A stretch of 64,000 bases of DNA, taken from Geobacter sp. UBA5735. Its GTDB lineage: Bacteria; Desulfobacterota; Desulfuromonadia; Geobacterales; Geobacteraceae. The notes below the pieces were generated by a model. The model searched no databases, was not told where the DNA came from, and saw nothing but the letters and a program-made list of their open reading frames with translations. Position numbers and translations under genes: made by a program. The DNA lies in the NCBI GenBank assembly GCA_002419385.1, contig DIFZ01000024.1, forward strand, positions 749 through 64,748, read 5' to 3'. Below are positions 5,731 through 26,228 of the stretch, one piece after another (position 1 is the stretch's first letter; every line of letters begins with the position of its first letter).

Positions 5731-5731
5731 C

Positions 5732-6784: not shown

Positions 6785-6789
6785 AAGAT

Positions 6790-8124: not shown

Positions 8125-8187
8125 TGCATTACCTTTATTCAACGTTGCCGATTGTCATACCGGCTTCTCATCAATCATCATAGGCCA

Positions 8188-8220
8188 AGACCTGCCAGGT
8201 TTTCAAAACCTGGCAGGTCT
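8188..8220. repeat. perfect 33-nt palindrome between two genes of the operon
   Basis: agacctgccaggtttt c aaaacctggcaggtct: 16-nt arms that are perfect reverse complements. It lies in the 113-nt gap between the radical SAM stop and the ligase start. No U-tract follows on the transcribed strand. Confidence 0.6.
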
Positions 8221-8237
8221 GCGTCAACGTTCACTCT

Positions 8238-11004: not shown

Positions 11005-13331
11005 TTCTTGATCCCCACGATTTTCATTCTGTGACAGTATGCATTCAGTACCGTGAAGCCATCGCCCTCAAGCTGATACTCCACCCAGAACGTCACGTTC
11101 GCCGGTTGCAGATATGCCAGGAAATTGCCGCTTTCACTGCACTGCATCCTCATGCCGCTCGATTCGGCATGCAAAATCACTTTCCTGATATCTTCCTCGA
11201 GGATCCTGCGCTCGTCGACGCGTTTGCGCACCTCGGGCGACATGACCAGCGCCAGCTTTTCGTAGTGCTCCAACTGAGGCTCCTTCCCCTCGCCAAGTTC
11301 AGCAAGGACAGATTCCTTGACGCGTACGCGGCCATCGCGGCGCTCCGACCAGGATATCCAGCCGCGGGCGGCGGGATCGGCGCCCGCGACAACGGGGAAA
11401 AGATGCTCGATGATATGGGATATGCGTTTCCCGACAAAGGCGAAGTTGTCCCTGCACATTGCGCAATACGCCAGGTAGTCGTTATCGCTCGCCGTTGTCC
11501 TCCTGGCAACCACGTCCCGTGCCAGGGTCGGGTTCGCGTTGTACATGAGCCCCCCGTAGCCGCAGCATTCCGGCTTCTCTCCGCTCAGTGGAAGCTCCTC
11601 GATGCCCATGCCGAGGGATTCGAGAATCCTGCGGATGCCCTGCTGCTCCTCCTGTTTCTGGCGGGACGCACAGGGATCGACAACCGATACGGTGACTTCC
11701 CCGGCCCCGGACACCCGTACCGAAACGGGCAACCCTGCATCAAGGATGGTACTCCAGAGAGAAACCGGTTCCGTTTCCGGCAGGTGTTCCTGGAACATAT
11801 TCAGGCAGGTAGTGCAGGCAGTGATGATCCGGGGTTTGCCCATCTTCTCCCAGCAACCCCGTATTTCGTTCAGCGCCTGACTGAACAGGTCTTCCCGTCC
11901 TGCCCAGAAAGCGGGGGCACCGCAGCAGTGGAGCAGGATGCCCACACCGCCGGTCAGCTTCTCCCTCAGGTAATGGTAGGAGGACAGGACCTCGCCAGGC
12001 GCGGATCCGCACAGCTGACAGCTGGGGAAATAGAGCCAGGCGCTCTCGCTTTTCCCAGGTTCACGGCGGCACAGGCTGAAAAGATCGCTGTTGCTGAATG
12101 CCATGTCGTCAAGGGCGAATTCGTGGAAGGAAGCCGGCATGATTTTCTGCTTCAGCAGGGTGCGGCGCGCCTCAAGACACATGTCGGCCATGCTGAAATC
12201 GTTCGGGCAGATGGTCTCGCACAGGCCGCAGGTGCTGCAGGAATTCGTGAAAACGTTGTACTGGTGGGCAGCACCCAGGAGGATACGTTCATTATTGAAG
12301 ATCTCCCGTGCGTATTTCTTCGGATACGCCTTGTAGCGTTCCAAAAAGAGGCATTTTTTCACGCACTCCCTGCATTCGCACTGAATGCAGCGCTTCGCCT
12401 CCATGTGCGCCTCTTCTTCCGAATAACCCTTTACGGAATCAGCAGGCACGACCCTCGGCAGCGGATCGATTCCTTCAAGGCTGGTGAAAAGCCGGGAACT
12501 GCATGGGCCCTCGTTTTCCCTGCCGAATTCCAAACCGACCTTCTGCATCAGGCGTTCTATGGAGAGGGCCGGCTTTCTTCCTTCCAATGTCTCCATGACC
12601 GGCGAAAAACCGCCTCGGAAGCGGGTACCGCCACCGGCGAACACCCCATCCCTGCCTGTGGCTCCCGTTGAAGGTGTAACAGCGATGAGGCCGTCGCCAT
12701 CCAGTTCGAGAGGAAGAGCACACCCATGGAATGAATCACGATCCAGAATCACGGCTGCGTATTCTTCACAAACCTGTTCAAAAAATGCCTTGTCAAGCCG
12801 GACTCCAAGGTGGATGTCCGCCATCATACTTTCAAGGACCAAGAGTTCCTCGGCGAGAATTTCCCGTGGCAGTATCCGCTCCGGAAGATCCCAAAGCGGC
12901 CCGCCAAGCCGCTCGCCCGATTCAAAAACGGAAACTACAAACCCTTTCTTGAGAAGATCCCAGGCGGCGGTTACACCGGCCAGACCCGCCCCGAGAACAG
13001 CGATGCGGTGGTTTTTGCGAGGCAGCAGCTGGACACGCTTTTTCCCGGCAAACTTCTCAACGCAGAGCCGTTCCAATGATCCGATGGCCAGGGGACCACC
13101 CACGGGGCCCCGCTTGCACCGCTCCTCGCAAGGATGGTCGCAGATGCGCCCCAGGATGCCGGGAAAAGGCATGGTCTTGTTCAGGACCTTATAGGCAGCG
13201 TCCCAGTCACCCTTGCGGATCTCCTTCAGAAAAAGCCTGGCATCGACATGGAGCGGACAGGCCGACGTACATTCGGGAGATTCCTCCTGGATGCATTTGT
13301 TTTCCCATGCAATGAGTTCGTTCTTTTCCAT
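11001..13331 (-). CDS. multidomain flavo/FeS oxidoreductase: GltD-like N-terminus, NAD(P)/FAD Rossmann, 2x[4Fe-4S], HdrD-type CCG domains
   Basis: Track ORF to 13409; I set the start at the ATG at 13331 (GAAGG upstream). Domains read in order:
- CPLHVDARLFLKEI...ICDHPCEERC, a glutamate-synthase small-subunit-like FeS domain.
- IAVLGAGLAGVTAAWDL, a dinucleotide-binding motif.
- CIQCECRECVKKC and CSTCGLCETICP, ferredoxin-type clusters.
- Two Cys-rich CCG-like regions (LHCCGAP, PECCGYGG). Confidence 0.75.
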   Translation of the reverse strand: MEKNELIAWENKCIQEESPECTSACPLHVDARLFLKEIRKGDWDAAYKVLNKTMPFPGILGRICDHPCEERCKRGPVGGPLAIGSLERLCVEKFAGKKRVQLLPRKNHRIAVLGAGLAGVTAAWDLLKKGFVVSVFESGERLGGPLWDLPERILPREILAEELLVLESMMADIHLGVRLDKAFFEQVCEEYAAVILDRDSFHGCALPLELDGDGLIAVTPSTGATGRDGVFAGGGTRFRGGFSPVMETLEGRKPALSIERLMQKVGLEFGRENEGPCSSRLFTSLEGIDPLPRVVPADSVKGYSEEEAHMEAKRCIQCECRECVKKCLFLERYKAYPKKYAREIFNNERILLGAAHQYNVFTNSCSTCGLCETICPNDFSMADMCLEARRTLLKQKIMPASFHEFALDDMAFSNSDLFSLCRREPGKSESAWLYFPSCQLCGSAPGEVLSSYHYLREKLTGGVGILLHCCGAPAFWAGREDLFSQALNEIRGCWEKMGKPRIITACTTCLNMFQEHLPETEPVSLWSTILDAGLPVSVRVSGAGEVTVSVVDPCASRQKQEEQQGIRRILESLGMGIEELPLSGEKPECCGYGGLMYNANPTLARDVVARRTTASDNDYLAYCAMCRDNFAFVGKRISHIIEHLFPVVAGADPAARGWISWSERRDGRVRVKESVLAELGEGKEPQLEHYEKLALVMSPEVRKRVDERRILEEDIRKVILHAESSGMRMQCSESGNFLAYLQPANVTFWVEYQLEGDGFTVLNAYCHRMKIVGIKK

Positions 13332-13380
13332 CGGGACCTTCTTTCGTCGGGAATCATGGAGAATGACAACAGAAAACGAT

Positions 13381-13407
13381 GGAGAGCCGGTGATGCGGTG
13401 ACTCTCC
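13381..13407 (-). promoter_or_regulatory. 5'-proximal stem-loop of the accessory-operon mRNA
   Basis: The minus-strand RNA GGAGAGUC-ACCGCAUCACC-GGCUCUCC forms an 8-bp stem including one G.U pair. That pair would be a C/A mismatch on the other strand. It is followed by AUCGUUUUCUGUUGU and lies between the ModE box and the start codon. Confidence 0.4.
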
Positions 13408-13435
13408 ATCGTTATAACATAAAATACATTACGAT
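13408..13435 (-). promoter_or_regulatory. ModE-type operator (box 1)
   Basis: The minus strand reads ATCGTAATGTA-TTTTAT-GTTATAACGAT. This is an 11-6-11 palindrome of the ATCGnTATATA-N6-TATATAnCGAT type. It sits about 75 nt upstream of the oxidoreductase start. Confidence 0.7.
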
Positions 13436-13499
13436 TAAAGTGTTATGGAGCCGGCCGGGTCATGCACCGGCTCCAAGAGCTTGAAACAGCCACTTTCTG

Positions 13500-16304
13500 C
13501 TATTTTTTCGGTGGCGCGGAGTTTACATCCTGGCATACATAACCCTGGGCCAGAGCGTCGGACACGTCGAAAGCCTTCTTCGGCGACTTGAGCGCCGCGA
13601 GGATCTTCTCGGGGTATGCCGGCAGGTGACGGATGCGTGCGCCGCATGCGTTGTCGATGGCGTTGATGACGGCGCAGTGAGGAGCGGACAGCGGAAGTTC
13701 GCCGACGCCGCCGGCGCCGAAGGCGCCCAGTTCACGAGGCTTGGTCACATAGATGATTTCGAGATCGTCGGTGATGTCCTTGCAGAACGGGAAGCCCGCG
13801 CCGATCATGTTGGAGTGCGCCTTGATCATCTCGAAGTCTTCGGTAAGGGCCAGTCCGATACCCTGGGCCAAACCGCCGTAGATCTGGCCGTCAACGACCA
13901 GTTGGTTGGTGATGGTGCCGACGTCGGCCACATGGGTCATCTTGTAGCAATGAGCCTTGCCGGTGGTAATGTCGACTTCGACTTCCGCCAGGAACAGACC
14001 GTACATGTAAATACAGAACGGTTCGCCCTTGCCGGTCTCGACGTCGCACGGCGTGCACGGCGTGGTCCATTTGCCGTATACCTGGGTTTCGATTCCTTCC
14101 TTCACCATTTCGTCATAGGTGCGATAGGTGCCGTCAGCTTTCCTCATGGCCGCAAGCAGGTTCTCGCAGGAAACCCTGATGGCGTTGCCGGTGACGACGT
14201 TGTTGCGGCTGCCGCCGGACGGGCCGCTGTTCGGGGTCAGACTGGTGTCGTTCAGGCAGAGGTGGATCTGGGACGGTTTCAGCCCGAGGGGCTTGAGGGT
14301 TTCATGGGCGAATGCAAGGGTGCCCATATCGGAACCCTGGCCGTGATCCTGCCAGCTGTTGCCCATCATCACTTCGTTGTTGGGCAGGAGTTTAGCCCAG
14401 CTTTCGGATGTGTCGGGGCCGTCGAGGCCGCAACCGTAGATGCCGAGGGAAACGCCGACGCCGCACTTCACGGTGTCGGTGCTTCTCAGTTTTGCGTTTG
14501 CAACGGCTCGCTCGTATTTCGGACGGAGCGCTTCGAACTGCTCAGGGAATACGAACACTTCCGGAGTCTGCTGAGTCGGGGTGGTTGCGCCGGGGCGGTA
14601 GCAGTTGATTTCGCGGAGTTCGAACGGGTCTTTCCCCATTTTCTTGGCCAGCTCGTCGATAAGGGACTCGGAGGCGAAGAAGGCCTGCGGAGAACCGTAT
14701 GCGCGGAAAGGGGCGCCCCAGCAGTGGTTGGTGCAGACTGTCCGGCCTTCACCGCGCATGTTCGGGATGTCGTAGCCTGCGAAGGCGTACTGTAAACCAC
14801 GAACGGTGAGGAGGTCGCCGAACTCGGAGTAGGGACCGTGGTCGACGGACCAGTCGGTTTCCGTGGCGAGGAATTTGCCGTCTTTGTCAGCGGCAATCCT
14901 GGCCTTGAACCAGAACGGAGAGCGCTTGCCGGTGTAGAACTGCAGTTGAGCCCAAGAGCAGGAAAGGTGAACCGGTTTGCCGCCGACCGCCATGGTGGCA
15001 ACCGCGAGCAGGGCTTCGTTGGAAGGACAGAATTTGTAACCGAAGGAGCTGCCGCAGGGGTTCTGTACGATGACCAGGTTTTCCAGTTCGACGCCGACAC
15101 CCGGGGCGATCATTGCCTGGTGCAATTGCAGACAAATGGACTTGGAATGGACGACCACCTTGCCTTCATCATTGATGTACGCGAATCCGACGTCCGGCTC
15201 GACGGGCATCTGGGGTTGACGGCCGAGATAGTACTCGCCTTCCACAACATAGGCGGCTTTTTCCATGATCGGCTTGGTGTCCTCACCCTTGACCAGATTC
15301 TGGGTGAAGTAGACGTTCGGGGTGCCGGGGTGAATTTCAATTGCGTCCGGAGCCATGGCTGCCGGCGCGTTCATGTAGTGCGGCAGCACTTCCAGGTCGA
15401 ACTTAACCAGCTTCGCAGCGGCATCGGCATGCGCTTTTGTGTCGGCAATTACGAGAGCAATGGCGTCCCCATACTGGAAGACCTTCTGGTCGTTGAGAAT
15501 CGGGCGGTCCCATCCGTCACCCTTATTGGTGGGGAAGGTAATCAGACCGGTGATGCGGTTCTTGCCCTTGACGTCCTTGTGGGTTACAACCTTGACCACG
15601 CCCGGCGCCTTCTCTGCTGCGGAGGTGTCGATCCCCTTGATGTTTGCATGGGCCACATCGGCGTACGCGATGGCGGCATGGAGGGTGTCTTCGGGGAGCT
15701 GGTCGGCCTTATCGTTGCCGAAATCCCAGAGTCCGCAGACCTTGGCAACGGATGTGGGACGCGGATACCGTGTTCCGTAAACCCTGCCGTCCTCAGGGGC
15801 CTTGTAATCAAATACGGATGCGGACATTTCGCCGCGCAGAACCTTGGCGGCGTCCATCACTGCGTCAACGATGGAGATGTAACCGGTGCAGCGGCAGGCA
15901 TTCTTGTACTGGTGGAACCAGTCACGCACTTCTTCACGGGTCGGGTTCGGGTTGGAATCGAGGAGCGCCTTGGCGGAGACTATGAAACCAGGGGTACAGA
16001 AACCGCACTGAAGTGCGCCGTGGTGGATGAAAGCCTTCTGGAGGGGGTGGAGGTTAATCGGTGTACCGATCCCCTCGGTGGTGGTAATCGTCGACCAGTT
16101 TTCGACCCGCTTCATCTTCATGGTGCAGGTGCGAACGAGCTTGCCGTTCAGGATGACATTGCAGGCGCCGCATGTGCCGGTCGCGCATCCGACCTTGACA
16201 CTGGTCAGGTGTAACTGTTTCCGCAGAACATCGGACAGGAGAGCTTCCTGGTCAACGATCAGCGTCCTCTCGACACCATTTACTTTGAGAACCTTTTTAA
16301 TCAT
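13500..16304 (-). CDS. mop: aldehyde oxidoreductase, xanthine-oxidase family, MOP type (2x[2Fe-2S] plus molybdopterin domains in one chain)
   Basis: Start set at MIKKVLKVNG (AAAGGAGGAGG upstream). The N-terminus KVNGVERTLIVDQEALLSDVLRKQLHLTSVKVGCATGTCGACNVILNGKLVRTCTMKMKRV is near-colinear with Desulfovibrio gigas MOP as I remember it. The second 2Fe-2S motif is CGFCTPGF, followed by about 750 aa of molybdopterin-binding domains. Confidence 0.9.
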   Translation of the reverse strand: MIKKVLKVNGVERTLIVDQEALLSDVLRKQLHLTSVKVGCATGTCGACNVILNGKLVRTCTMKMKRVENWSTITTTEGIGTPINLHPLQKAFIHHGALQCGFCTPGFIVSAKALLDSNPNPTREEVRDWFHQYKNACRCTGYISIVDAVMDAAKVLRGEMSASVFDYKAPEDGRVYGTRYPRPTSVAKVCGLWDFGNDKADQLPEDTLHAAIAYADVAHANIKGIDTSAAEKAPGVVKVVTHKDVKGKNRITGLITFPTNKGDGWDRPILNDQKVFQYGDAIALVIADTKAHADAAAKLVKFDLEVLPHYMNAPAAMAPDAIEIHPGTPNVYFTQNLVKGEDTKPIMEKAAYVVEGEYYLGRQPQMPVEPDVGFAYINDEGKVVVHSKSICLQLHQAMIAPGVGVELENLVIVQNPCGSSFGYKFCPSNEALLAVATMAVGGKPVHLSCSWAQLQFYTGKRSPFWFKARIAADKDGKFLATETDWSVDHGPYSEFGDLLTVRGLQYAFAGYDIPNMRGEGRTVCTNHCWGAPFRAYGSPQAFFASESLIDELAKKMGKDPFELREINCYRPGATTPTQQTPEVFVFPEQFEALRPKYERAVANAKLRSTDTVKCGVGVSLGIYGCGLDGPDTSESWAKLLPNNEVMMGNSWQDHGQGSDMGTLAFAHETLKPLGLKPSQIHLCLNDTSLTPNSGPSGGSRNNVVTGNAIRVSCENLLAAMRKADGTYRTYDEMVKEGIETQVYGKWTTPCTPCDVETGKGEPFCIYMYGLFLAEVEVDITTGKAHCYKMTHVADVGTITNQLVVDGQIYGGLAQGIGLALTEDFEMIKAHSNMIGAGFPFCKDITDDLEIIYVTKPRELGAFGAGGVGELPLSAPHCAVINAIDNACGARIRHLPAYPEKILAALKSPKKAFDVSDALAQGYVCQDVNSAPPKK

Positions 16305-16511
16305 ACTTCCTCCTCCTTTGGGTTTTATGTAACCGGGCAATGCCCGGCTACGAGGGATGAAACAAACCCTTCATCGCTCCTGTGGAGAGGATGGCGCTGA
16401 AGGACGGCGAACCAACAAGAATGCCGATAACAGTTCATTCAGACCCACTACCCTGCCTGTGGATGAGACAGGGGTGCTAAAAAAAAGACATGCCGAAAGT
16501 TGTCCATACCT

Positions 16512-16557
16512 GAAAAAAGGCCCCTCACTCCGCCAGTGGAGGAGACAGGAGTGAGGG
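16512..16557 (-). terminator. intrinsic terminator after the MoeA-like gene
   Basis: Minus-strand RNA: CCCUCACUCC-(16 nt)-GGAGUGAGGG followed by GCCUUUUUUC. Confidence 0.65.
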
Positions 16558-16581
16558 AAGGTGGAATGACAAACTTTCTTT

Positions 16582-17607
16582 CTACCCCTTGCCGAAACTG
16601 CAGGCGGGGTAGCGGCACGCTTCACAGTCGAGACAGTAGCCGCCATGACCCAGTGCGACTATGTCTGCGCGACTTACGCGCTCACCTGCAAGTATTCTCG
16701 GTACGATCAGTTCAACTATCGTTGCCTTGTGATACATGGCGCATCCGGGAACGCCGATGATCGGCACATCGCCGATGTAGGCAAGCATGAACATGGACCC
16801 CGGAAAAGTGGGCGCCCCGTACGTGACGACGTCAGCTCCACTAGCCTTGATTGAAGCGGGGGTGCGGTCATCAGGGTCAACCGACATCCCGCCGCTTGCA
16901 ACGATCATTTCTGCACCTTCTGCCAGGAGCTGCCGGATGGACGCAACAATCACCGACGGGTCATCGGGGGTGAATATCTGCCGCATGACGGTGCTGCCTA
17001 CCTCGGCAAACTTGGCACGCAGGACCGGGCCGAACCGGTCTTCGATCCTGCCGTGGAACACTTCGTTCCCGGTCGTGACGAGGCCGACTTTCAGGGAACG
17101 GAACGGTTTTATTTTGACAACAGGCCCGTATTCCCCGCAGATCCTTTCAACGGCGAGGATCCGGTCGTTGTCGGTATAAAGGGGTATGATGCGTGTACCT
17201 GCGACCGGCATGTCAGCTGAGACCTGCTGATCGGAATGAAGGGTTGCAAGGACGATCTGCTCTATGGAATTAATTTCCTGGAGGGCGGCTGAGTTGACTT
17301 TGATGAGACCATTACGGGCAGAGACCAGCTTGACCTTTCCTTCGGACGGCTCAGAAAAAACGATGCCCTCCCCCGCAGCCGCCCGCGCTATCCGGAGTGC
17401 GGCGTCATTTTCATGCACGAAACCTTCCTTGAGATCAAGGACATATATGTTGTCTTTGCCCAGCTTCAGCAGTTTCGGGACATCTTCTTCCTTTATGACG
17501 TGCCCCTTTTTGAACGCACGCCCCTTGAATTCTCCCGGGACGATGCGGGTTATGTCATGGGAAAGAACCCTGCCGACTGCTTCCTGGACGGGGATGGATT
17601 TCATCAT
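16582..17607 (-). CDS. MoeA-like molybdopterin-binding protein (MoeA N-domain plus MoCF_biosynth domain, Cys-rich tail, no MoeA_C)
   Basis: Start set at the ATGATG at 17607 (AGGAG upstream). It has IPVQEAVGRVLSHDI (MoeA-like) and LKVGLVTTGNEV...ASGGMSVDPDDRTP (MoCF domain). The C-terminal tail is GHGGYCLDCEACRYPACSFGKG. Confidence 0.7.
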   Translation of the reverse strand: MMKSIPVQEAVGRVLSHDITRIVPGEFKGRAFKKGHVIKEEDVPKLLKLGKDNIYVLDLKEGFVHENDAALRIARAAAGEGIVFSEPSEGKVKLVSARNGLIKVNSAALQEINSIEQIVLATLHSDQQVSADMPVAGTRIIPLYTDNDRILAVERICGEYGPVVKIKPFRSLKVGLVTTGNEVFHGRIEDRFGPVLRAKFAEVGSTVMRQIFTPDDPSVIVASIRQLLAEGAEMIVASGGMSVDPDDRTPASIKASGADVVTYGAPTFPGSMFMLAYIGDVPIIGVPGCAMYHKATIVELIVPRILAGERVSRADIVALGHGGYCLDCEACRYPACSFGKG

Positions 17608-17715
17608 CCTCGGATTTCTCCTTTTGATTTTAAGCTTTTTTCCGCGGTAGCGCGGCTCCAGCCGGCTGGTTTTCCCGCACAGTCTGCACAGAGGGAGACC
17701 GGTTTCTTCTCCAGA

Positions 17716-17761
17716 ATGAAAAACCCGCATCAATACTGAATTCATTCAGTATCAATGCGGG
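17716..17761 (-). terminator. intrinsic terminator/attenuator inside the MoeA-like leader
   Basis: Minus-strand RNA: CCCGCAUUGAUACUGAAU-GA-AUUCAGUAUUGAUGCGGG then UUUUUCAUUC. The arms are 18 nt and contain two G.U pairs. Those would be C/A mismatches on the plus strand, so the hairpin is strand-specific. It sits about 110 nt upstream of the start codon and about 150 nt downstream of the predicted promoter. Confidence 0.7.
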
Positions 17762-17802
17762 TTTCGTTAGGTCCGCACGGTGCGGAGGACGAAATCGGCG
17801 CT
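17757..17802 (-). promoter_or_regulatory. conserved structured leader motif, copy A
   Basis: Minus-strand RNA: AGCGCCGAUUUCGUCCUCCGCACCGUGCGGACCUAACGAAACCCGC. It has an outer helix UUUCGU/ACGAAA and an inner hairpin UCCGCA/UGCGGA. Its 3' CCCGC is the first part of the terminator stem. A second copy lies at 22185..22229. Confidence 0.6.
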
Positions 17803-17914
17803 TTGATCTATCCGGCTAGCTTCAACAGGTGTCGAGATGTTTCATCGGATCGCTTGTCGTGAGGTTCCCTGTTTCCGGTGAAGCATGGCATATCGGGTAC
17901 AACGCTGCAGAGGT

Positions 17915-17948
17915 ATCGTTATTTATCATGTTATATAACCATATGCAA
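17915..17948 (-). promoter_or_regulatory. ModE-type operator (box 2) overlapping a sigma-70-like promoter
   Basis: The plus strand reads ATCGTTATTTA-TCATGT-TATATAACCAT (17915..17942), with 2 mismatches to the ATCGnTATATA-N6-TATATAnCGAT pattern. On the minus strand, TTGCAT (17948..17943) is followed by a 17-nt spacer and then TAAATA (17925..17920). The box therefore covers the spacer and the -10. Confidence 0.75.
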
Positions 17949-18202
17949 GAAATTTTTTCCTCATCGAAACGTGGCCGAAAAAAGATATTTTTCTTGCAAA
18001 GCGAAAAAAAAGCTGTCTCCCGGTCAAAAACCTCGCCGACGAATACATGAAGCTCGTGCACCATATCCCCGCTGCCTGTATTCCGTCATTCCGACGACAA
18101 CCCGAATCCTGTAATTTCAATTATATGCGGAAGTACCTCACCCCGATTTCCAACGGGTGAAGATTTTTTCGAACCGACACGGTGAGTAAGTAAACTTTTT
18201 TC

Positions 18203-18236
18203 TTGCATTTCGTTATTTAATTTGTTACATAACGAG
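18203..18236 (+). promoter_or_regulatory. ModE-type operator (box 3) overlapping the promoter of the modE-like gene
   Basis: TTGCAT (18203..18208) is immediately followed by TTCGTTATTTA-ATTTGT-TACATAACGAG (18209..18236). TACATA sits 17 nt after the -35. The geometry is the same as for box 2. Confidence 0.7.
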
Positions 18237-18346
18237 TGGATATTCTCCCATATCCATTCTTTCCTTGGCCCCATGTTGCCCAGCATGGGGCCTCCCTTTA
18301 ACACCTTTCAGAAACTTCGGCAGTATACGGAAAAAGGATTCCTCAC

Positions 18347-18703
18347 ATGGACAACAAAAGAATAGACATGTCCGGCAAAATCTACCTCCACCTGAAAGAC
18401 TGCAAACCCCTTGATATGGAAAGCATAGCGCTTCTAGAAAAGGTCGACATCCACGGGTCGATAGCCCGCACTGCGAGAGAGATCGGCATCAGCTATCCGA
18501 AGGTATGGCATACTATCGACACGTTGAACAGACTGTCATCCAAGCCCCTGGTGGTAAAACTGGCCGGTGGCAAAGGCGGCGGCGGCGGCACATTCCTCAC
18601 TGAAGAGGGCAGAAAGTTCATCAAACGTTTCAAGTCAATACAGCGGACCCACGAAAGGTTCATCCGGCAGCTCGAAGACAAATGGCACGGGAGCCGCAGG
18701 TAA
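18347..18703 (+). CDS. modE: ModE N-terminal-domain-only winged-helix regulator (no molybdate-binding Mop domains)
   Basis: 118 aa. The block LLEKVDIHGSIARTAREIGISYPKVWHTIDTLNRLSSKPLVVKLAGGKGGGGGTFLTEEGRKFI is the ModE/LysR-type HTH with the characteristic Gly-rich loop. The ORF ends where the di-Mop domain of full-length ModE would begin. Confidence 0.8.
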   Translation: MDNKRIDMSGKIYLHLKDCKPLDMESIALLEKVDIHGSIARTAREIGISYPKVWHTIDTLNRLSSKPLVVKLAGGKGGGGGTFLTEEGRKFIKRFKSIQRTHERFIRQLEDKWHGSRR

Positions 18704-18834
18704 GGGCCTCGCGGGAGGAAAACTCCGGCTGCCCTTCACCCTAGCTCCTCTGCCTGCTCCATGCAGCGGGAGTACACAGCCCGTCCACCAATCGGCAATA
18801 CCCGCGGACAGGCCGTTAATCACTGGTCCCCAGC

Positions 18835-19242
18835 TCAATCCAGGTCATCATGGGAGTGATCGCACCCGCCGCTGCCATCCCCGCAACGGCCTGCCTCTGC
18901 ACTGCATTGCTTTTTCACTTCCGGCAGCTCCTGCCTGCCGAACAGTTCCGCATTTTCCCTGACGCTTTCCGATTGCGCCTCGTAGACCATGAATCCCATC
19001 ATGTTCAACAGTTCCAGGAGGTTGTCGCCTATTCCGCCGACGACCACTCCGTCCAGTTCGCTGCCGGCCAGGGCTTTGAACGGATTGCACCCAGCCTCAG
19101 GGGCGGACCTGTCTTGGTTGGGGACGGCCGATGTTGCTTCGGTTTCGGTATCAACCAACAAAAAGTGGGGCGCTGAAGCGAAGTGGCCGTAAATACGGCT
19201 TTCCATCCCCTCATCCTCGATTACGGGAAAACATACTTTCAT
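18835..19242 (-). CDS. NifB/NifX-type (dinitrogenase FeMo-cofactor-binding domain) protein, orange-protein-like, with Cys/His-rich tail
   Basis: Start set at MKVCFPV. The blocks HFASAPHFLLVD...DGVVVGGIGDNLLELLNMMGFMVYEA fit the Nitro_FeMo-Co fold. The tail is CSAEAGRCGDGSGGCDHSHDD. Confidence 0.7.
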   Translation of the reverse strand: MKVCFPVIEDEGMESRIYGHFASAPHFLLVDTETEATSAVPNQDRSAPEAGCNPFKALAGSELDGVVVGGIGDNLLELLNMMGFMVYEAQSESVRENAELFGRQELPEVKKQCSAEAGRCGDGSGGCDHSHDDLD

Positions 19243-19330
19243 ATCCAAAAACCTCCAATGAGATAACGGGCAGTCCATGCCCGGACAAAAACTGAATGCC
19301 TGCCGTCAAGCCGGCTGACACCGCCAGTAC

Positions 19331-20680
19331 CTACGGAGCTTTCATTTCTTCCATGACCAATGCCTTGCCCACCAGGTCCATCACGCCGCCGCACACCGTA
19401 GCCCCCATGCCGTAATGCTTCAGGACAAGGGGGAGTTGTGCTTTGCAGCTGGCACAGGGCGCAGCGACATAATCCAGCGGCTGAAGCGCTTGTATCTGCC
19501 GAGCTTTCATTTTTCCGAACTGCATGCGCAAATCGTGCATTTCGTCCATGAGCAGACCGGAACCGCCCCCGCAGCAGAAATTGCGCTCCCGGTTGGGGGA
19601 CATTTCGACGAATTCTTCTACGCAGGCCTTGACGATCTGCCTCGGCGAATCCAAAAGTCCTGTCCCTCTGCCATAGTTGCAGGAGTCGTGGAGCGTTGCC
19701 CTCAGGGGCAGCCGGGTGAGATTCAGCTCCGGGAGCCGTTTCGCCACGTAATCCAGGACATGTTCCAGATGAAAAGGAACGGGGCCGTTCGCACCTTCGG
19801 CATACATCCGGGCTGCACGCCAGCCATGGCCGCACTCTCCCAGAATCACATGCCTGGCACCGACCGCCGCCGCAGCCGTCCGCATACGTCGGTCATGCTT
19901 TTTAAGAATCTCCACATCGAAGTGAAGGCCGTAGTTCGCAGCCTCAAGCATGACCGAAGAGAGAGTCCAGTCGACTCCCAGTATGTGGAAGACCTTGGCT
20001 GCCCCCAGCAGTGTCTCCACATTGGTAAAGAGTTCTGATGATGACGGCAGGAACAGGACTTCGGTGTGCGGTTTGTCAACCGGAATCCTGATGTCGATGC
20101 CGGTTTCATCGCGCAATTCGTCTTCCAGAAAGGAGCAGCTGTCGATGATGGCCGGCTTGAGAATTCCGCTGTTGTTTCCCGTCTGGAGTTCATTGCGGCC
20201 GATAGTGACCAGAAAGCTCGGTGCAATCCCCATCCGGAGCAGGATGTTGCGCCCGGCAAGGACGATTTCTCCCGTGTCGATACCGCAGGGGCAATAAACG
20301 GCACAGCGGCGGCACACGGTGCACTGGTAAAAGTAGCTCGCCCACGTGTCGAGAGTATCGGCATCGAACTCCCGTGCGCCGGCAAAACCGCGGAACAGTC
20401 TGCCGGACCAGGTGAAATACCTCGCGAATATGCTGCGCAGCAGACCGGCCCGTGCTGCGGGCAGGTTATTGAAATCGTCCGTCCCCAGGTAACTGTGGCA
20501 GGCTTTGGCACACGCCCCGCACCTGGTGCAGGTTTCCAGCATGACCGAAAACGACCTGGCAAATTTCCTGAACTCATCCAGCAGGTCGAGAGTCCGTTCC
20601 TTCATGGAAGACTCGTCGACCTGTTCGATGCCGAGATGGTGCAAATCCTCCTTTTTCGCCGGATGATAGGGCAGGTTCAC
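19331..20680 (-). CDS. dsrK: DsrK/HmeD-like FeS protein with CCG domains
   Basis: 449 aa. It has CTRCGACAKACH...LLRSIF and CTVCRRCAVYCPCGID (2x[4Fe-4S]), plus C-terminal CCG motifs (HDSCNYGRG, NFCCGGGSG). There is a GTGA overlap with the DsrM-like stop. Confidence 0.75.
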   Translation of the reverse strand: MNLPYHPAKKEDLHHLGIEQVDESSMKERTLDLLDEFRKFARSFSVMLETCTRCGACAKACHSYLGTDDFNNLPAARAGLLRSIFARYFTWSGRLFRGFAGAREFDADTLDTWASYFYQCTVCRRCAVYCPCGIDTGEIVLAGRNILLRMGIAPSFLVTIGRNELQTGNNSGILKPAIIDSCSFLEDELRDETGIDIRIPVDKPHTEVLFLPSSSELFTNVETLLGAAKVFHILGVDWTLSSVMLEAANYGLHFDVEILKKHDRRMRTAAAAVGARHVILGECGHGWRAARMYAEGANGPVPFHLEHVLDYVAKRLPELNLTRLPLRATLHDSCNYGRGTGLLDSPRQIVKACVEEFVEMSPNRERNFCCGGGSGLLMDEMHDLRMQFGKMKARQIQALQPLDYVAAPCASCKAQLPLVLKHYGMGATVCGGVMDLVGKALVMEEMKAP

Positions 20681-21498
20681 GTCTGCCCTCCCCTATCCAC
20701 CGGTCCCTGTGCAGCTGCGTGAAGGGCAGCATGAACCCTGCGTGCCGCAAAGCGCGACCGGGGAGCGGCGCCTTCCGCGGTCGGACTGGCCGGGGGAGCT
20801 TCCATGAGCATCGCCCGGTTGACGATGGAACCGGCAGCGTGGAGCAGGCGTGAAAAGGGGAAATACAGCAACAGGATGTTCGCCAGCAGAAAATGGCTGA
20901 CGAACATCGGGCTGTCGGGCAGCGCCGCGGAACGGAACATGATGAGATCGCTCATGTAAGCCCTGACGGCGGGGAGATCCGCTTGAAAACCGGGCAGGTA
21001 CATCATGATTCCCGAGACGGCAAGCGCCATGAGCAGCAGCAGGTTGAAAAAATCTTCCGCCACGGAAAGCTTCCTGACCTCCGGATTGACGATTCTGCCG
21101 ATGAGAAGCGCGTAAAGCGAGAGCACCATCACGCCACCCGACAGCCCTCCCAGCAATTTTGACATGAATCGGCTCGTTCCAGGGCTCACGCCGACAAGGG
21201 TAAACTGGTCACGAAGACAGTATATCCCGACCACATGGCCTGCGATAACCAGCCCCAGAGACAGGTGGAACAGCCAGACCCGAAGCCAGAGTGCCTTGTC
21301 TTCGCGGAAAATGCGGCCGCAGAAAAAAAACTCCCCTGCGAGAGCCGCGACCTTTCCCATCGTGTTCCGTGGTGCGGGAAAAAGCGTGATGTGGAACGGG
21401 ACAGGCTTTTTCAACCATCCCGCGATCTTCATAACCGTTCCGGAGATGAAGACAGCACAAGCCGTATAGGGAAGAAGTGCTCCCAGCAGAAACTCCAT
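20677..21498 (-). CDS. dsrM: DsrM/NarI-like membrane cytochrome b
   Basis: 273 aa, about 5 TM helices. The start resembles nitrate reductase gamma subunit family proteins (LLPYTACAVFISGTVMKIAGWLKKPVPF). Conserved His residues lie in the helices. Confidence 0.7.
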   Translation of the reverse strand: MEFLLGALLPYTACAVFISGTVMKIAGWLKKPVPFHITLFPAPRNTMGKVAALAGEFFFCGRIFREDKALWLRVWLFHLSLGLVIAGHVVGIYCLRDQFTLVGVSPGTSRFMSKLLGGLSGGVMVLSLYALLIGRIVNPEVRKLSVAEDFFNLLLLMALAVSGIMMYLPGFQADLPAVRAYMSDLIMFRSAALPDSPMFVSHFLLANILLLYFPFSRLLHAAGSIVNRAMLMEAPPASPTAEGAAPRSRFAARRVHAALHAAAQGPVDRGGQT

Positions 21499-21520
21499 GC
21501 ATCATCCTTGCTGCATCGTG

Positions 21521-21838
21521 TTACAGGCAACCTGCCGGCTTGGGAAGGCCTGCCACTTTGCAGGCTCCTTTCGCGGGACCGGGTGGGAACAGATCCTCGA
21601 TCTCCTTCAAGGCCAGCCCGGTATCCTTGCAGAGCTTCCGGATCATCGGAGCAATGCGGAACCGCTCATAATAATCACGCAGGTAGTAGATCACCCGCCA
21701 GTGATTGTCCGTAAACTCTGCAATGTTCACCAGTGCCCCGTATGCCCTGGCCACATCCTCGCTCCATTCTTCCGGATGCACGAGAAAACCATCTTCGTTG
21801 AGTTCAACAAGTTTTCCGTTAACCTTGAGATACGCCAT
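21521..21838 (-). CDS. dsrC: DsrC-type sulfur carrier (TusE/DsrC/DsvC family) with both C-terminal cysteines
   Basis: 105 aa. It ends ...GPAKGACKVAGLPKPAGCL, which has the penultimate Cys plus a second Cys 10 residues upstream. This is nearly identical to the Desulfovibrio DsrC tail as I remember it. Confidence 0.85.
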   Translation of the reverse strand: MAYLKVNGKLVELNEDGFLVHPEEWSEDVARAYGALVNIAEFTDNHWRVIYYLRDYYERFRIAPMIRKLCKDTGLALKEIEDLFPPGPAKGACKVAGLPKPAGCL

Positions 21839-21947
21839 GACATTACAGCCCTGAATTCACGTTGTCCCAGTGAACTAGTTTATGGTAAAAGTCTTGCGCG
21901 GTGTTCCCGTCGCGGGGCAGGAGGCTGCCAACCGGTTGCGTCCAGGT

Positions 21948-22118
21948 TCAGCTGCCGTATATATTGCTCAGGGTATAGGTAAGACACTTGGTGCATTGCC
22001 ATTTGTATTGGCCCAAATGATCATGGCAGAACCATGCACCACATTTCGAACATTTCTTGTTCAGGTAGTACTCGGTATCTATCTCTTTGTTGCATGTGGC
22101 ACATTTTTCAATCGACAT
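21948..22118 (-). CDS. small Cys-rich zinc-ribbon protein (hypothetical)
   Basis: This is the internal ATG of the track ORF 21948..22256. Sequence: MSIEKCATCNKEIDTEYYLNKKCSKCGAWFCHDHLGQYKWQCTKCL. AAGGG lies 7 nt upstream. It sits right after the leader motif and terminator (copy B). Confidence 0.4.
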   Translation of the reverse strand: MSIEKCATCNKEIDTEYYLNKKCSKCGAWFCHDHLGQYKWQCTKCLTYTLSNIYGS

Positions 22119-22140
22119 GGGTATCCCTTTCAGATTCCGG

Positions 22141-22188
22141 AAAAATAAACGCACCCCTGAAATGCCGGTATAAGCGGCTCTGGTGCGG
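22141..22188 (-). terminator. terminator-like hairpin plus U-run after leader motif copy B
   Basis: Minus-strand RNA: CGCACC-(26 nt with an inner GCCG/CGGC stem)-GGUGCG followed by UUUAUUUUUCC. It is weaker than copy A. Confidence 0.45.
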
Positions 22189-22229
22189 GTTTCGTTGGGT
22201 CTGCTGAAGCAGAGGACGAAATGTGCGCT
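22185..22229 (-). promoter_or_regulatory. conserved structured leader motif, copy B
   Basis: Minus-strand RNA: AGCGCACAUUUCGUCCUCUGCUUCAGCAGACCCAACGAAACCCGC. The outer helix and flanks are the same as in copy A. The inner hairpin is UCUGC/GCAGA, with a compensatory C:G to U:A change relative to copy A. Confidence 0.6.
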
Positions 22230-22302
22230 CTGGCTGTTGTGTGGAATGGCCGACAAAAGGATCGGAGTGCACGGAGATTGCCTTGCAGCGATGGAACATA
22301 AC

Positions 22303-22476
22303 CTACTTGAATGTTTCGGTTTTCTCTATATAGCTGACCCCTCCGTCCTTGAAGGAAATGACCACTTTCCCGGAAAAATTGTCCGGAATTATGTTCAACT
22401 CCGAAAGAGTGTCGGAAACTTTCCTCTTCCAGACCGAATTCGGCACCCTTATGTCTGTGACGACTTGCCTTCGCAT
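22303..22476 (-). CDS. YezD/DUF2292-like small protein
   Basis: This is the internal ATG of the track ORF 22303..22545. The C-terminus GKVVISFKDGGVSYIEKTETFK matches the remembered DUF2292 pattern (G-x-V-x-I-x-x-x-D-G-x-V-x-x-I-E-K-T-E). Confidence 0.5.
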   Translation of the reverse strand: MRRQVVTDIRVPNSVWKRKVSDTLSELNIIPDNFSGKVVISFKDGGVSYIEKTETFK

Positions 22477-22719
22477 GAAATTTTTCGATGCCCCCCCGAA
22501 AGCCCATGGCCATGGAAATTCCGTACCAGCACCGGCATTTTCCATGCGAAGCCTCCGCTTCCCGTTTCCTCTTGGAATGTACTCAGTGAATGAATTGCTG
22601 CGTGGTGTTCAGGCATTGCGGCTTAGTGGCAAACAGAGCCAGGCCTGAGGTTTTCAATCGACAACGCAGTTCAACCAGTCAGAAAAAAAAGCTGTTTCCG
22701 GATGGAAATCACCTATCGT

Positions 22720-22761
22720 TTGCACCATTCGTTATATATATTATTAAACAACGGAGTGCAA
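22720..22761. promoter_or_regulatory. ModE-type operator (box 4) bracketed by inverted -35-like hexamers
   Basis: TTGCAC (22720..22725), then ca, then TTCGTTATATA-TATTAT-TAAACAACGGA (22728..22755), then GTGCAA (22756..22761). The left half-site is near perfect and the right half has 4 mismatches. It lies in the divergent region between the yezD-like gene and the MOT1-type transporter gene. Confidence 0.6.
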
Positions 22762-22958
22762 GAGAATTTTTCTGCCCGGCACCCATGGTCATCCCGCAAA
22801 TCCCGTAAACATTCTTGACGATGCGCGACCGAACGGGTAACCTTGCACATCGGCGTGATGGTCACTTACCGCGGACGGCCATGCTCCCGCGAACCTCCAG
22901 AAAAGATTCAAACGAGCAAATCGCCCCGGCCGACATTACAACCTGGATATTGAAATAC

Positions 22959-24119
22959 ATGAGAATCGGTTCATTCGAATTCAACCTTCGCGAGCTTTCC
23001 GGATCTCTCGGCGACATGGGCACCTTCGTGCCGCTGGCAGTCGGGTACATCGCGGTCTGTGGCATGGAGCCCGCAGGGATCCTGCTGATGATGGGCCTGG
23101 CGAATATTGCCACCGGCCTGTACTACCGGCTGCCAATTCCCATCGAACCGATGAAAGTCATCGCCGCCGCGGCAATTGCGCAGCAGTGGCCGCCGTCGAT
23201 GATCCTGGCATCAGGATTCTCCATGGGCATCATCTGGATGCTCATTGCCGCTACAGGGGCGGCCTCCCGTGTAGCGAACCTGACTCCTTCTGCGGTTGTT
23301 CGCGGCATCCAGGTAGCGTTGGGAATTCTTCTGGCAATTGAGGCCGGAAAACTGCTTTCCACCTCCTGGCTTCTGGGCGGACTGGGCCTTGCGATCGGCA
23401 TCGGCTTTCGGAAATGCCGCCATGCGCCGGCGGCCGTTGTGCTGGTTCTGCTGGGAGTCGCGATCATGATGATCAACGGCACGTTCAGCCAGGTCATGAG
23501 CCCGGAGATTACCCTTCCTCACCTTGCCACCTTCAGCCTCGGGGAAGTCTGGCAATCCCTGGTCCAGGCGGGATTTGCCCAGATACCGCTCACCGTGACC
23601 AATGCCACCATCGCCACATCGTGTCTCATTTCCTCCTACTGGCCCGAACGACAGGTCAGTCCGCAGCGGCTTTCCGTCAGCCAGGGGATTATGAACCTGT
23701 TTTCTCCTTTTTTCGGCGGCATGCCCATGTGCCACGGTGCGGGCGGCTTGGCCGGCCAGTACTATTTCGGAGCACGGACCGGCGGCACGAACATAATCGA
23801 AGGAATTATCGAAATCATTCTCGGACTCTTCTTCGCCGCTTCGGTGGCTGGGCTGTTTGCTTCTTTTCCCCAGGCCGTGACCGGAACCATGCTGATGCTC
23901 GTGGGATTTGAGCTCATAAAGTTTGCCCGTGACGTGCGTGGCTCGCGGGACACACTTGCCATGGCAATGACCGTTGCGGTATCCCTGGCGTCAAATATGG
24001 CATTCGGCTTCCTTGCAGGCTTGCTGGTAAACCGAATGCTGCCGTATATGAACACTGAAAAACAGCATCCGAAGAAACCCCGTCAATCTCCCCAAAGATC
24101 ATCCGGGAACGGAGAGTGA
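22959..24119 (+). CDS. MOT1-family (sulfate/molybdate transporter-like) membrane protein
   Basis: Start set at MRIGSFEFNLRELSGSLGDMGTFVPL (the track start at 22815 adds a non-membrane R-rich leader). It is polytopic. The GD(M/L)GT and ...MPMCHGAGGLAGQYYFGARTGG blocks are typical of the putative molybdate transporter family as I remember it. Confidence 0.7.
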   Translation: MRIGSFEFNLRELSGSLGDMGTFVPLAVGYIAVCGMEPAGILLMMGLANIATGLYYRLPIPIEPMKVIAAAAIAQQWPPSMILASGFSMGIIWMLIAATGAASRVANLTPSAVVRGIQVALGILLAIEAGKLLSTSWLLGGLGLAIGIGFRKCRHAPAAVVLVLLGVAIMMINGTFSQVMSPEITLPHLATFSLGEVWQSLVQAGFAQIPLTVTNATIATSCLISSYWPERQVSPQRLSVSQGIMNLFSPFFGGMPMCHGAGGLAGQYYFGARTGGTNIIEGIIEIILGLFFAASVAGLFASFPQAVTGTMLMLVGFELIKFARDVRGSRDTLAMAMTVAVSLASNMAFGFLAGLLVNRMLPYMNTEKQHPKKPRQSPQRSSGNGE

Positions 24120-24258
24120 TGCATCCGGAAAAACGCGGGCAGGCAAAGCCCCGCCCCTCGTTCTCACGTCGTCACTAACAGGCTGTCACTGTTGGAAAAA
24201 ATATGATAGAAAAGAAACAGAAAATACAGATCCTGCACCAAAACCGGAGGGAATTTAC

Positions 24259-25071
24259 ATGCTGAAGGGAAAGAAAATCGGCTTTATCGGCGGCGGCAAC
24301 ATGGCCGAAGCAATCGTAAAAGGCCTGCTTGCCGGGGGAGTTGCCACACACGACATAACCCTCGCCGAACCGGTTGCGCAACGCCGGGACTACCTGCTGG
24401 CCAGCTATGGGGTCACTGCGGTCGACGACAATGGCAGCGCCCTTCAGGCGGCCGACATCGTCATCCTGGCAGTAAAGCCCCAGGTCTGCATGACTGCGCT
24501 CCGATCACTGCCGGGCGATGCGTGTTCAGGAAAGCTCTTCATCTCCATCATGGCCGGAGTAACGACCCAGGCGATTGAAAACGCCCTGGCAAAGGGGGTG
24601 CGCGTGATCCGGGTTATGCCCAACACACCCGCCCTGGTTCTTCAGGCGGCATCAGCCATTGCCCCTGGCACCAGCGCAACCGCCGGTGACCTGTCCCTGG
24701 CTCTTGAAATATTCAATCTGCTGGGCACCGCCTGCACCGTGGAAGAGAAACTTCTGGACGCAGTGACAGGCCTTTCCGGAAGCGGCCCCGCCTATGTGTT
24801 CACGTTCATAGAAGCGCTCTCGGACGCAGGGGTCAAAAACGGCCTTCCGCGGGACAAGGCAACCCTGCTGGCAGCCCAGACCGTGCTGGGTTCCGCCAAA
24901 ATGGTGCTTGATACGGCTGAACATACGGGAGTCCTGAGGGACCGGGTGACCTCGCCGGGGGGAACGACCATCGCCGGCCTGCACGCCCTTGAGCAGGCGG
25001 CTTTCAGGGGCGCGATCATGAATGCCGTTGACATGGCGACAAAGAGATCGGAAGAACTGGGCAAATCCTGA
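24259..25071 (+). CDS. proC: pyrroline-5-carboxylate reductase
   Basis: 270 aa. It has IGFIGGGNMAEAIVKGL and the C-terminal dimerisation block VTSPGGTTIAGL. Confidence 0.9.
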   Translation: MLKGKKIGFIGGGNMAEAIVKGLLAGGVATHDITLAEPVAQRRDYLLASYGVTAVDDNGSALQAADIVILAVKPQVCMTALRSLPGDACSGKLFISIMAGVTTQAIENALAKGVRVIRVMPNTPALVLQAASAIAPGTSATAGDLSLALEIFNLLGTACTVEEKLLDAVTGLSGSGPAYVFTFIEALSDAGVKNGLPRDKATLLAAQTVLGSAKMVLDTAEHTGVLRDRVTSPGGTTIAGLHALEQAAFRGAIMNAVDMATKRSEELGKS

Positions 25072-25078
25072 CAGGCTG

Positions 25079-25927
25079 CTAAAACATGAGACCGTATTCC
25101 CGCTCCAGGTACTGGAACGCCCTCTTGATCCGGGTTTTCAGCGTCACCTCGTTGACCGGCTTGAAAATGCAATCGAAGAAACCCTTGCCAAGCGCTTTGG
25201 CCTCTTCCTCTGTTTCGTTGCTGCCGGCCATCAGAATGAACGGAATATACCGCATTTCCGGCAGATTCCGCAGAGCATCGAACAGGCTGTATGCGTCAAG
25301 CTTCGGCACCATCTTTTCAGTCACGATAACCTGTGGCATCTCGGATATTGCGGTCTTGTAGGCCTCCATCCCATCAGCGGCAACCTTGACCCGATAACCT
25401 TCCTTGACAAGTATCTGATTCCACATCGTTGCCAGCAGGCTGTCTTCCCCGACGAGCAGAAGCGTTTTCTCCTGCTGGAAAGAAGGTTCCTTGCCCAGGT
25501 AGTGCCTGCAGATCGCCTCAGTTATTTCCTTTCTGGTGCCGATAAAGGGGATCACCTTCAGTCCATGATTGGCTGCGATATTGGACACGATTCTGGTCTC
25601 CGTCGGGTCCGCCATTGCCAGAGCAAGTCTGCCATTCTCGATTTTCAGGGGAAACAGCATGTTCTGCATCGCCACGTCCGCAGGAATGATGGCGAGCAAT
25701 TCGGCTGAGAAACTGTGCCGGGCGAAACTTCCGACCACCTTGTAGCCGTACTGTTCCGCAAGAGCCGCGGCAAGCTCTTCGCCGGTTATCAGTTCCGTCT
25801 CTTCAAGCAGGGCGCCCAACCGTTTCTTCAGCCTCTTGGATCGTGCAAGAGTCCTGAGCATGGTCTTTTCCGTAATGAGCCCCTGTTCAATGAATATCTC
25901 ACCCAGCAGCTTTCTCTTCGCCATCAT
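25079..25927 (-). CDS. MshEN (T2SSE_N-type) domain fused to a response-regulator receiver
   Basis: The N-terminus LLGEIFIEQGLITEKTMLRTLARSK...RLGALLEETELITGEELAAALAEQ resembles the tandem MshEN motif. The C-terminal half has LLVGEDS...D...KPV receiver features. Confidence 0.7.
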   Translation of the reverse strand: MMAKRKLLGEIFIEQGLITEKTMLRTLARSKRLKKRLGALLEETELITGEELAAALAEQYGYKVVGSFARHSFSAELLAIIPADVAMQNMLFPLKIENGRLALAMADPTETRIVSNIAANHGLKVIPFIGTRKEITEAICRHYLGKEPSFQQEKTLLLVGEDSLLATMWNQILVKEGYRVKVAADGMEAYKTAISEMPQVIVTEKMVPKLDAYSLFDALRNLPEMRYIPFILMAGSNETEEEAKALGKGFFDCIFKPVNEVTLKTRIKRAFQYLEREYGLMF

Positions 25928-26228
25928 CTCTCCCCGTTGCACGAATCTGTCTATTTCTCATCTTAGTTGCGTATTGTAACCCGAACAGGCCAACAAATCC
26001 ACCAGCAATGAATTCGCAGGCACCTCGACCGCCGCACAAAGTGCGCGTTCCATCCAGCGCATCCAGGAACCTCATCCATGACCTGCTGCAAACGCACAGG
26101 TCATTCCTGCCCGTGCTCTTTGGGGCCCGTCAATGCCAATCCGCAAAGAGTACTGATCGGCCGGACCGCAAAAAACTTTACCGCATTCGGTCAGAGCCCG
26201 TTTCTTGCCGACGACGCATCGGCCGCGG

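Follow-up and report, generated by a model that had tools for sequence, protein, structure and literature searches.

The 64,000-nucleotide (nt) stretch of Geobacter sp. UBA5735 DNA considered here (contig DIFZ01000024.1, positions 749 to 64,748; the whole of it is called the window) carries two short RNA elements on its minus strand, copy A (17802..17757, 46 nt) and copy B (22229..22185, 45 nt). A first-pass annotation had described them as two unlinked copies of one structured leader, one ahead of a unit encoding a MOP-type oxidoreductase and the other ahead of a dsrC/dsrMK operon; the sequences it quoted are both present exactly at these positions. When the whole window was scanned against Rfam at curated thresholds, three matches were obtained, one to a tRNA and two to RF01713, the Moco-II RNA (model length 46 positions, curated gathering score 35 bits): copy A scored 53.6 bits and copy B 53.4 bits, each over model positions 1-46 of 46, with E-values of about 1e-6. 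Model R1, our own covariance model built from 90 distinct Moco-II members, gave 66.7 and 66.5 bits, respectively (E about 1e-16). Judged by these alignments, both elements are full-length copies of the catalogued Moco-II RNA. R1 with filters off detected no further copy, intact or degenerate, in the 64 kb, the next-best score being 11.7 bits (E 0.85), and the Rfam scan gave no further Moco-II match in 1..26000 at E ≤ 1. The term "unlinked" was wrong: the copies share a strand and are separated by 4.4 kb, each heading one of two adjacent operons, and at least 10 other loci have the same tandem order, with an operon led by a Zn-ribbon or DsrC gene directly upstream of a second motif and its MoeA-like/MOP unit.

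Two Moco-II leaders in a molybdenum gene island

Copy B (22185..22229) is preceded by sp57, a conserved open reading frame (ORF) of 57 amino acids (aa) on the minus strand (22303..22476; the mechanically called ORF extends to 22545), which ends 74 nt upstream of it. The predicted fold of copy B comprises a closing helix P0 (G22228-G22226:C22187-C22185), a helix P1 (U22221-U22216:A22195-A22190), and an inner hairpin P2 (U22213-C22209:G22204-A22200), separated by the internal loops CACA/CC and CC/CCCA. A terminator-like platform follows (22141..22187, minus strand), whose 5' arm overlaps the tail of the motif; it is built of a CGCACC/GGUGCG base and an inner GCCG/CGGC hairpin, then UUUAUUUUU. 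This two-tier hairpin (22187..22150) has a folding energy of -14.6 kcal/mol and is weaker than that of copy A. It is followed by TTTATTTTT (22149..22141), AAAGGGA, and an ATG at 22118. The same two-tier hairpin, with changes in the inner stem, was seen in other leaders of Zn-ribbon-type operons (L025, L045, L056, L061, L138, L154, L164, and L171), and the leader closest to the window's is L056, from Geobacter sp. GAC1. The small ORF of the window was also seen in a metagenome-assembled genome of an uncultured organism, recovered from a hydrocarbon metagenome.

The first gene after copy B is a Cys-rich Zn-ribbon ORF of 56 aa (21948..22118, minus strand, as are all genes of this operon), for which AAAGGGA is a possible ribosome-binding site. 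In all four public contigs with this locus, gene calling has missed the ORF. It is followed by a gene for a DsrC-type protein (21521..21838; PF04358, 5.6e-34; TIGR03342) that retains both redox cysteines in a C-terminal Cys-X10-Cys arm ending ...GACKVAGLPKPAGCL, a DsrM/NarI-like membrane cytochrome b (20677..21498; PF02665; NF038037 DsrM 98.8 bits, under the cut-off), and a DsrK/HdrD-like iron-sulfur protein with a CCG domain (19331..20680; PF13183 and PF02754; NF045796 DsrK 381 bits against a cut-off of 400). The last recognizable gene of the operon encodes a NifX/NifB-C-like protein with a Nitro_FeMo-Co domain (18835..19278; PF02579, 1.6e-14), and such a gene recurs in both Zn-ribbon-type and TylF-type operons. 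A 72-aa ORF lies at 18086..18304 on the same strand.

Copy A (17757..17802) is coupled to an intrinsic terminator (17716..17764, minus strand) with a perfect 20-base-pair (bp) stem (17764..17721) that starts with AAACCCGC in its 5' arm, is followed by a U-run, and has a folding energy of -28 kcal/mol. The start codon of the first gene, at 17607, lies about 110 nt past this terminator. The gene encodes a MoeA-like molybdopterin-binding protein of 341 aa (16582..17607, minus strand; PF00994), and the next one a MOP-type molybdopterin-dependent aldehyde oxidoreductase (13500..16304, minus strand; NF045668, 1567.8 bits against a cut-off of 1100). In the gap between the two (16305..16581) is a strong terminator-like hairpin on the minus strand (about 16516..16556), CCCUCACUCC...GGAGUGAGGGG followed by UUUUUU, with about 200 nt separating it from the start of MOP; a MoeA-like/MOP gap of about 280-300 nt recurs at other loci.

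The minus-strand genes that follow (13409..2440) encode an 802-aa flavo/CCG protein, a SAM methyltransferase, a GCAxxG protein, a radical-SAM enzyme (9614..8238) with the zinc ribbon of pterin-methylating HMPTM enzymes, an AMP-ligase, XdhC (6976..5732), a MocA-like cytidylyltransferase with an HD domain (5730..4579), a phosphatase, an ABC permease, and an ABC ATPase. The pairing of the radical-SAM enzyme with the methyltransferase hints at a modified pterin. On the other side, a gene for a MOT1-type molybdate transporter lies divergently on the plus strand (22815..24119). Both motif copies thus sit inside a molybdenum gene island. The tRNA gene returned by the Rfam scan lies at 60123..60196 on the minus strand (RF00005, 66.4 bits).

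Conservation and target genes of the Moco-II family

Moco-II was described in 2010 by Weinberg et al. from eight sequences, seven of Pelobacter/Geobacter origin and a doubtful one from Thiobacillus, as a motif usually adjacent to a terminator, with modest covariation and an association with MoeA and "nitrate reductase" (PMC2864571). We found no later paper on Moco-II in the searchable literature. The functional class of cis-regulatory RNA that the first-pass annotation argued for has therefore been in print since 2010 as RF01713, and its two leader contexts were both already in the seed alignment of that year. At position 278681 of Pelobacter carbinolicus, a small ORF (an sp57) ending ...GGISYIEKTETFK comes first, and the motif, a terminator, and a Zn-ribbon ORF come after it; at position 1639928 of P. 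propionicus, the motif precedes a DsrC-like gene; and MoeA-like genes lie downstream of three more seeds. The Thiobacillus seed (NC_007404.1/2557036-2556993) lies between the C-terminus of a DsrC (...LPKPTGCI, then stop) and a gene whose fragment matches DsrM. Given this position beside DsrM, the published "nitrate reductase" association probably stems from the NarI-family annotation of DsrM-like genes. The finding in the window is a rediscovery of a catalogued candidate cis-regulator and, since any Rfam scan labels both copies, it carries little weight as a discovery.

The family was surveyed with two exact-pattern scans, one of genomes in which the 3' tail was fixed and the 5' flank left free, and one of metagenomes in which the 5' GCGC was fixed and the tail left free; the patterns also fixed TCGTCCTC, GAC, and CGAAA. 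Together with model searches of the fetched loci, these scans yielded about 100 distinct true copies. Wherever the source organism of a copy is named, it belongs to Desulfuromonadales (Geobacter, Pelobacter, and Syntrophotalea in the genome scan), and the window's origin agrees with the known range of RF01713, the Geobacter/Pelobacter group of the delta-proteobacteria. Chance pattern matches in Streptomyces and other GC-rich genomes had neither the 5' flank nor a terminator. The core common to the window copies and RF01713 reads GCGCNNAYUUCGUCCUC...GACNNAACGAAACCCGC. Where the 5' flank was left free, 50 of 53 members had GCGC at a distance of 5 nt before TCGTCCTC; where the tail was left free, it was CCCGC in 43 of about 47. 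The 5' GCGC is conserved as strongly as the tail. The tail variants were CCCGU, which keeps a G-U pair, one ACCGC (L145), which is compensated by a change of the terminator 3' arm to GCGGU, and a single CUCGC (L160), where the terminator is missing.

In the alignment of 90 distinct sequences, on which all covariation and loop counts below rest as well, the inner hairpin covaries: its pairs are UA 61/CG 25/UG 4, GC 84/AU 5, and CG 65/UA 6/UG 5, in keeping with the modest covariation described in 2010. The first of these is the most frequently covarying pair and the very one that differs between the window copies (C:G in A, U:A in B), as the first-pass annotation had noticed. The alignment to the Rfam consensus, the predicted folds, and this covarying inner helix all place the two window elements in RF01713. 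So do the adjacent terminators, of which copy A has the 20-bp stem with U-run and copy B the weaker two-tier stem with UUUAUUUUU, and the gene contexts, MoeA-like then MOP for copy A and Zn-ribbon/DsrC/DsrMK/NifX-like for copy B.

When the distinct copies were tabulated by the first gene after the motif, MoeA-like genes were the commonest (26), followed by Zn-ribbon (21), MOP (9), and, with 8 copies each, a SAM-methyltransferase plus TonB-dependent receptor and a NifS-like cysteine desulfurase, sometimes with XdhC. The remainder were sp57 (6), a TylF-type methyltransferase plus NifX-like (5), DsrC-like (4), FDH-like (3), NuoE-like (2), and XdhC (1). A Zn-ribbon- or DsrC-led operon therefore comes first downstream in 25 distinct copies, which bears out the proposal that the dsrC/dsrMK operon and the MOP unit stand under the same RNA class. 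No moaABCDE or modABC operon was among the tabulated target genes. The targets are users or maturation factors of the molybdenum cofactor (Moco) and not makers of its pterin, which fits induction by the cofactor.

Two groups of leaders have further elements upstream of or within them. Tandem motifs occur in the methyltransferase/TonB-receptor leaders (L005 3292..3414, L047 4258..4380, L003 1137..1259, L088 1948..2074, and L127); in some, both motifs are complete and 74 nt apart, and in others a complete copy is joined by a degenerate one whose 5' GCG lies within the 3' arm of the preceding hairpin. Six NifS-like leaders (L009, L034, L043, L080, L129, and L172) share TGGTATATA and GTAAACAAC boxes about 75-90 nt upstream of the motif, which points to a shared promoter and a 5' leader longer by about 75 nt.

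These data also bear on whether the motif is a sensor at all. It could instead be a dispersed repeat of the REP or MITE kind, which the first-pass annotation had named as the outcome that would overturn its proposal, a DNA operator for a transcription factor, or the 3' end of the upstream gene together with its terminator. In favor of these readings, the core hardly varies in sequence and includes the inverted repeat TTTCGT..ACGAAA, and an sp57 gene ends just upstream in about one-third of the copies. Against them, there are only two copies in the 64 kb, and the motif always lies in sense orientation upstream of one functional gene set. The spacing of the conserved halves varies with loop length, P2 covaries, and the G-U pairs, which would read A-C on the opposite strand, fix the RNA strand. 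Most copies have no gene ending upstream. We consider a non-sensor of any of these kinds very improbable.

Overlap of the conserved fold with the terminator

In 96 of the 101 distinct members with at least 60 nt of downstream sequence, AAACCCGC contains the start of a hairpin with a U-run behind it (median -25 kcal/mol), and 72 of these hairpins start at the first A. The AAACCCGC strand can pair with either of two partners, the 5' strand of the motif (P1 plus P0) or GCGGGUUU, the 3' arm of the terminator, so that P0 and the 3' end of P1 share it with the terminator 5' arm, as in a riboswitch-type layout. P0, a 3-bp closing helix (5' GCG:3' CGC), is absent from the Rfam consensus. The minimum-free-energy folds of the isolated copies A and B contain P0, P1, and P2, RNAalifold independently predicted P0 on the alignment, and both of its partner strands are conserved like the core, which together suggest that this helix forms. 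When the terminator was appended in silico, P0 was lost and P1 was shortened. An outward extension of P0 was not supported, as column 2:52 can pair in only 27 of 90 sequences, and a pairing of the 5' flank GAGCGCAC with GUGCGUUU in the minimum-free-energy fold of copy B was dropped because, judged by inspection of their sequences, it is not conserved in other Zn-ribbon-type leaders.

With P0 in place, the motif reads GCG | CYYA | YUUCGU | CC | P2 | CYYA | ACGAAA | CC | CGC. This arrangement may be read as two C-Y-Y-A/C-C internal loops related by a pseudo-two-fold axis through P1, a reading of conservation and not a structural proof. The loop adenines are nearly invariant (A9 in 89/90 and A40 in 87/90), and the YY positions are pyrimidines in 80-87 of 90. 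No correlation was found between the variable dinucleotides of the two loops (195 of 2000 shuffles reached the observed value).

The reading that we favor, and consider probable by a modest measure, is that Moco-II acts as an effector-stabilized antiterminator, an ON switch reporting molybdenum-cofactor status. The nascent RNA would fold into the variable P2, P1 with its UUCG/CGAA core, and the closing P0, with AAACCCGC doubling as the 3' strand of P1/P0 and the bottom of the terminator 5' arm, beside the U-tract. Base pairs beside the U-tract are required for intrinsic termination. When the effector is absent, the much more stable terminator would oust P0 and transcription would stop; an effector that reports cofactor availability would clamp P0/P1, block the base of the terminator, and allow read-through. 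Since there is no intermediate antiterminator element, an agent that stabilizes the fold should prevent termination. Candidates for the effector are Moco or a pterin or metal form of it, and a protein would be less likely. Read-through would express cofactor users and maturation genes, from copy A the MoeA-like gene and perhaps MOP, and from copy B the Zn-ribbon/DsrC/DsrMK/NifX-like operon. Membership in the family, the terminator overlap, the mutual exclusion of P0 and terminator in folding, and the target gene set are observed; that P0 forms in vivo, that the switch turns genes on, and what the effector would be are inferred.

The same exclusion could also work in the opposite direction, with P0 plus P1 as the default antiterminator and an effector that diverts the 5' GCGC or the loops, frees CCCGC, and causes termination. 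Such repression could be exerted by the cofactor, as feedback, or by tungsten. Repression is also the mode of action of the best-known molybdenum-cofactor RNA, the Moco riboswitch of E. coli moaA (PMC2408646). The isolated motif folds into P0, P1, and P2 ligand-free, and for uptake operons with TonB receptors repression under an ample metal supply would be the more natural mode. Such an OFF switch would, however, call for an alternative partner of the GCGC, and none is conserved inside the motif; nor is there a separate anti-antiterminator, the conserved tail itself being the terminator arm, and the targets are mostly cofactor-using enzymes, without the moa synthesis and mod transport operons. 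We regard an OFF switch as unlikely.

Several observations weigh against an ON switch as set out above. Its direction is read from the architecture and the logic of the target genes. The authors who described Moco-II questioned whether a hairpin this simple would be a riboswitch, and they noted that Moco is too unstable for easy testing (PMC2864571). Covariation is confined to the inner hairpin; no covariation was detected in P1 and P0 among the 90 sequences, whose columns there are invariant, so that it neither supports nor refutes pairing in the outer helix, and this invariance is in part due to the fixed search patterns. Among the variants found by the model, A44 to G is wobble-compatible, and U15 to A breaks the Rfam-model pair U15:A41 in five copies. 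P0 is limited to 3 bp. The TonB-receptor leaders form a class with atypical platforms and tandem motifs. Finally, control of MOP by copy A is uncertain because of the strong terminator-like hairpin between the MoeA-like gene and MOP.

The main rival to the ON-switch reading is antitermination by a protein. Two equivalent C-Y-Y-A/C-C loops in a two-fold arrangement are what a site for a protein dimer would look like, and the simplicity of the hairpin, on which Moco-II's original authors remarked (PMC2864571), also favors this rival. A small, probably dimeric protein might bind the symmetric loops and block the terminator, in the manner of HutP or PyrR, and carry a molybdenum or tungsten signal; sp57 would be the first candidate and the Zn-ribbon protein the other. 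An sp57 homologue precedes the motif in 19/19 Zn-ribbon-type, 5/5 TylF-type, and 11/26 MoeA-type leaders, with 2-135 nt between its end and the motif, and one also lies upstream of two P. carbinolicus seeds, giving the order regulator, terminator, structural genes; the gene order fits a protein attenuator in about 36% of copies. The sp57 sequence (RRQVVTDIRVPNSVWKKK...FSGKVVISFKDGGISYIEKTETFK; for example, in L015, L036, L038, L094, and L155) is very strongly conserved, with a basic N-terminus, and its 92 homologue clusters have named sources that are all Desulfuromonadales except one metagenome bin labelled Syntrophus. However, about 60% of the motif copies have no sp57 upstream, six loci have sp57 directly followed by the Zn-ribbon gene without a motif between, and two sp57 subtypes stand alongside one invariant RNA. 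No recognizable RNA-binding domain or structural relative was detected: sp57 had no family assignment in Pfam or NCBIfam, no sequence match in the PDB, and no Foldseek match better than E 2, and its predicted model consists of a helix and a beta-hairpin only (pLDDT 78). sp57 could be a mere member of the gene cluster, and we consider antitermination by a protein doubtful. A resemblance of sp57 to YezD/DUF2292 was unsupported by Pfam, even at E ≤ 10 on 31 members. Ribosome-coupled attenuation, which would require a fixed distance between the sp57 stop and the motif, was rejected because that distance spans 2-135 nt.

Related systems and the DsrC/DsrMK link

Nothing structural sets the window elements apart from RF01713, with which they share bacterial order, core, terminator, and gene contexts; what the present survey adds to the description of Moco-II is P0 with the symmetric loops, about 100 copies against 8, a wider range of target genes, and the probable DsrM/NarI-family nature of the published "nitrate reductase" gene. 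Moco-II and the Moco/Tuco riboswitch (RF01055; Regulski et al. 2008, PMC2408646) have in common that they are leaders before molybdenum- or tungsten-cofactor genes. However, RF01055 is a large multi-stem RNA that governs genes for cofactor synthesis and transport and is repressive in E. coli, whereas Moco-II is a 45-nt hairpin whose targets are users and maturation factors and whose architecture suggests activation. RF01055 had no match in the window at the gathering threshold and none at E ≤ 1 in 1..26000. In P. carbinolicus, Moco/Tuco riboswitches precede the tungsten-dependent genes aorA1-3 (PMC3543383), and since both RNAs coexist in that organism, they presumably report different things.

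A parallel in working principle, though not in family membership, is offered by other ON switches. In the pbuE adenine and crcB fluoride riboswitches, the aptamer overlaps the terminator directly and ligand binding is proven. Moco-II shares with them a conserved fold whose 3' strand doubles as the terminator 5' arm, without an antiterminator in between; its ligand and direction are only inferred. The hut operon of Bacillus subtilis has the order small regulator gene, intercistronic terminator, and structural genes, and its regulator HutP binds UAG repeats as a hexamer. The order of sp57, Moco-II with terminator, and operon is alike in about one-third of the copies, but the HutP sequence is unrelated to sp57.

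The conserved leader context across Desulfuromonadales argues that the DsrC/DsrMK module is co-regulated with the molybdenum aldehyde oxidoreductase, which gives a lead on the role of DsrC-type proteins outside the sulfate reducers. One possible rationale is a thiol-disulfide electron route that would lead from MOP and the CCG flavoprotein to the quinone pool. Another is a sulfur relay towards a sulfurated cofactor, which may be considered because NifS-like and XdhC genes are also Moco-II targets.

The published description of Moco-II, now sixteen years old, comprises only eight examples. The survey yields testable hypotheses on its effector and direction of control, namely the competition between antiterminator and terminator, a target set that predicts induction, and a candidate protein partner. 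A bolder and rather unlikely reading is that Moco-II is a molybdenum-responsive ON system that is either a pseudo-two-fold antiterminator clamped by an sp57 dimer or a binder of two cofactor-derived ligands, one per loop. If this is true, such a system would co-induce MOP, the factors that sulfurate its cofactor, and an electron module of thiol-disulfide type made up of DsrC/DsrMK, in bacteria without sulfate respiration.

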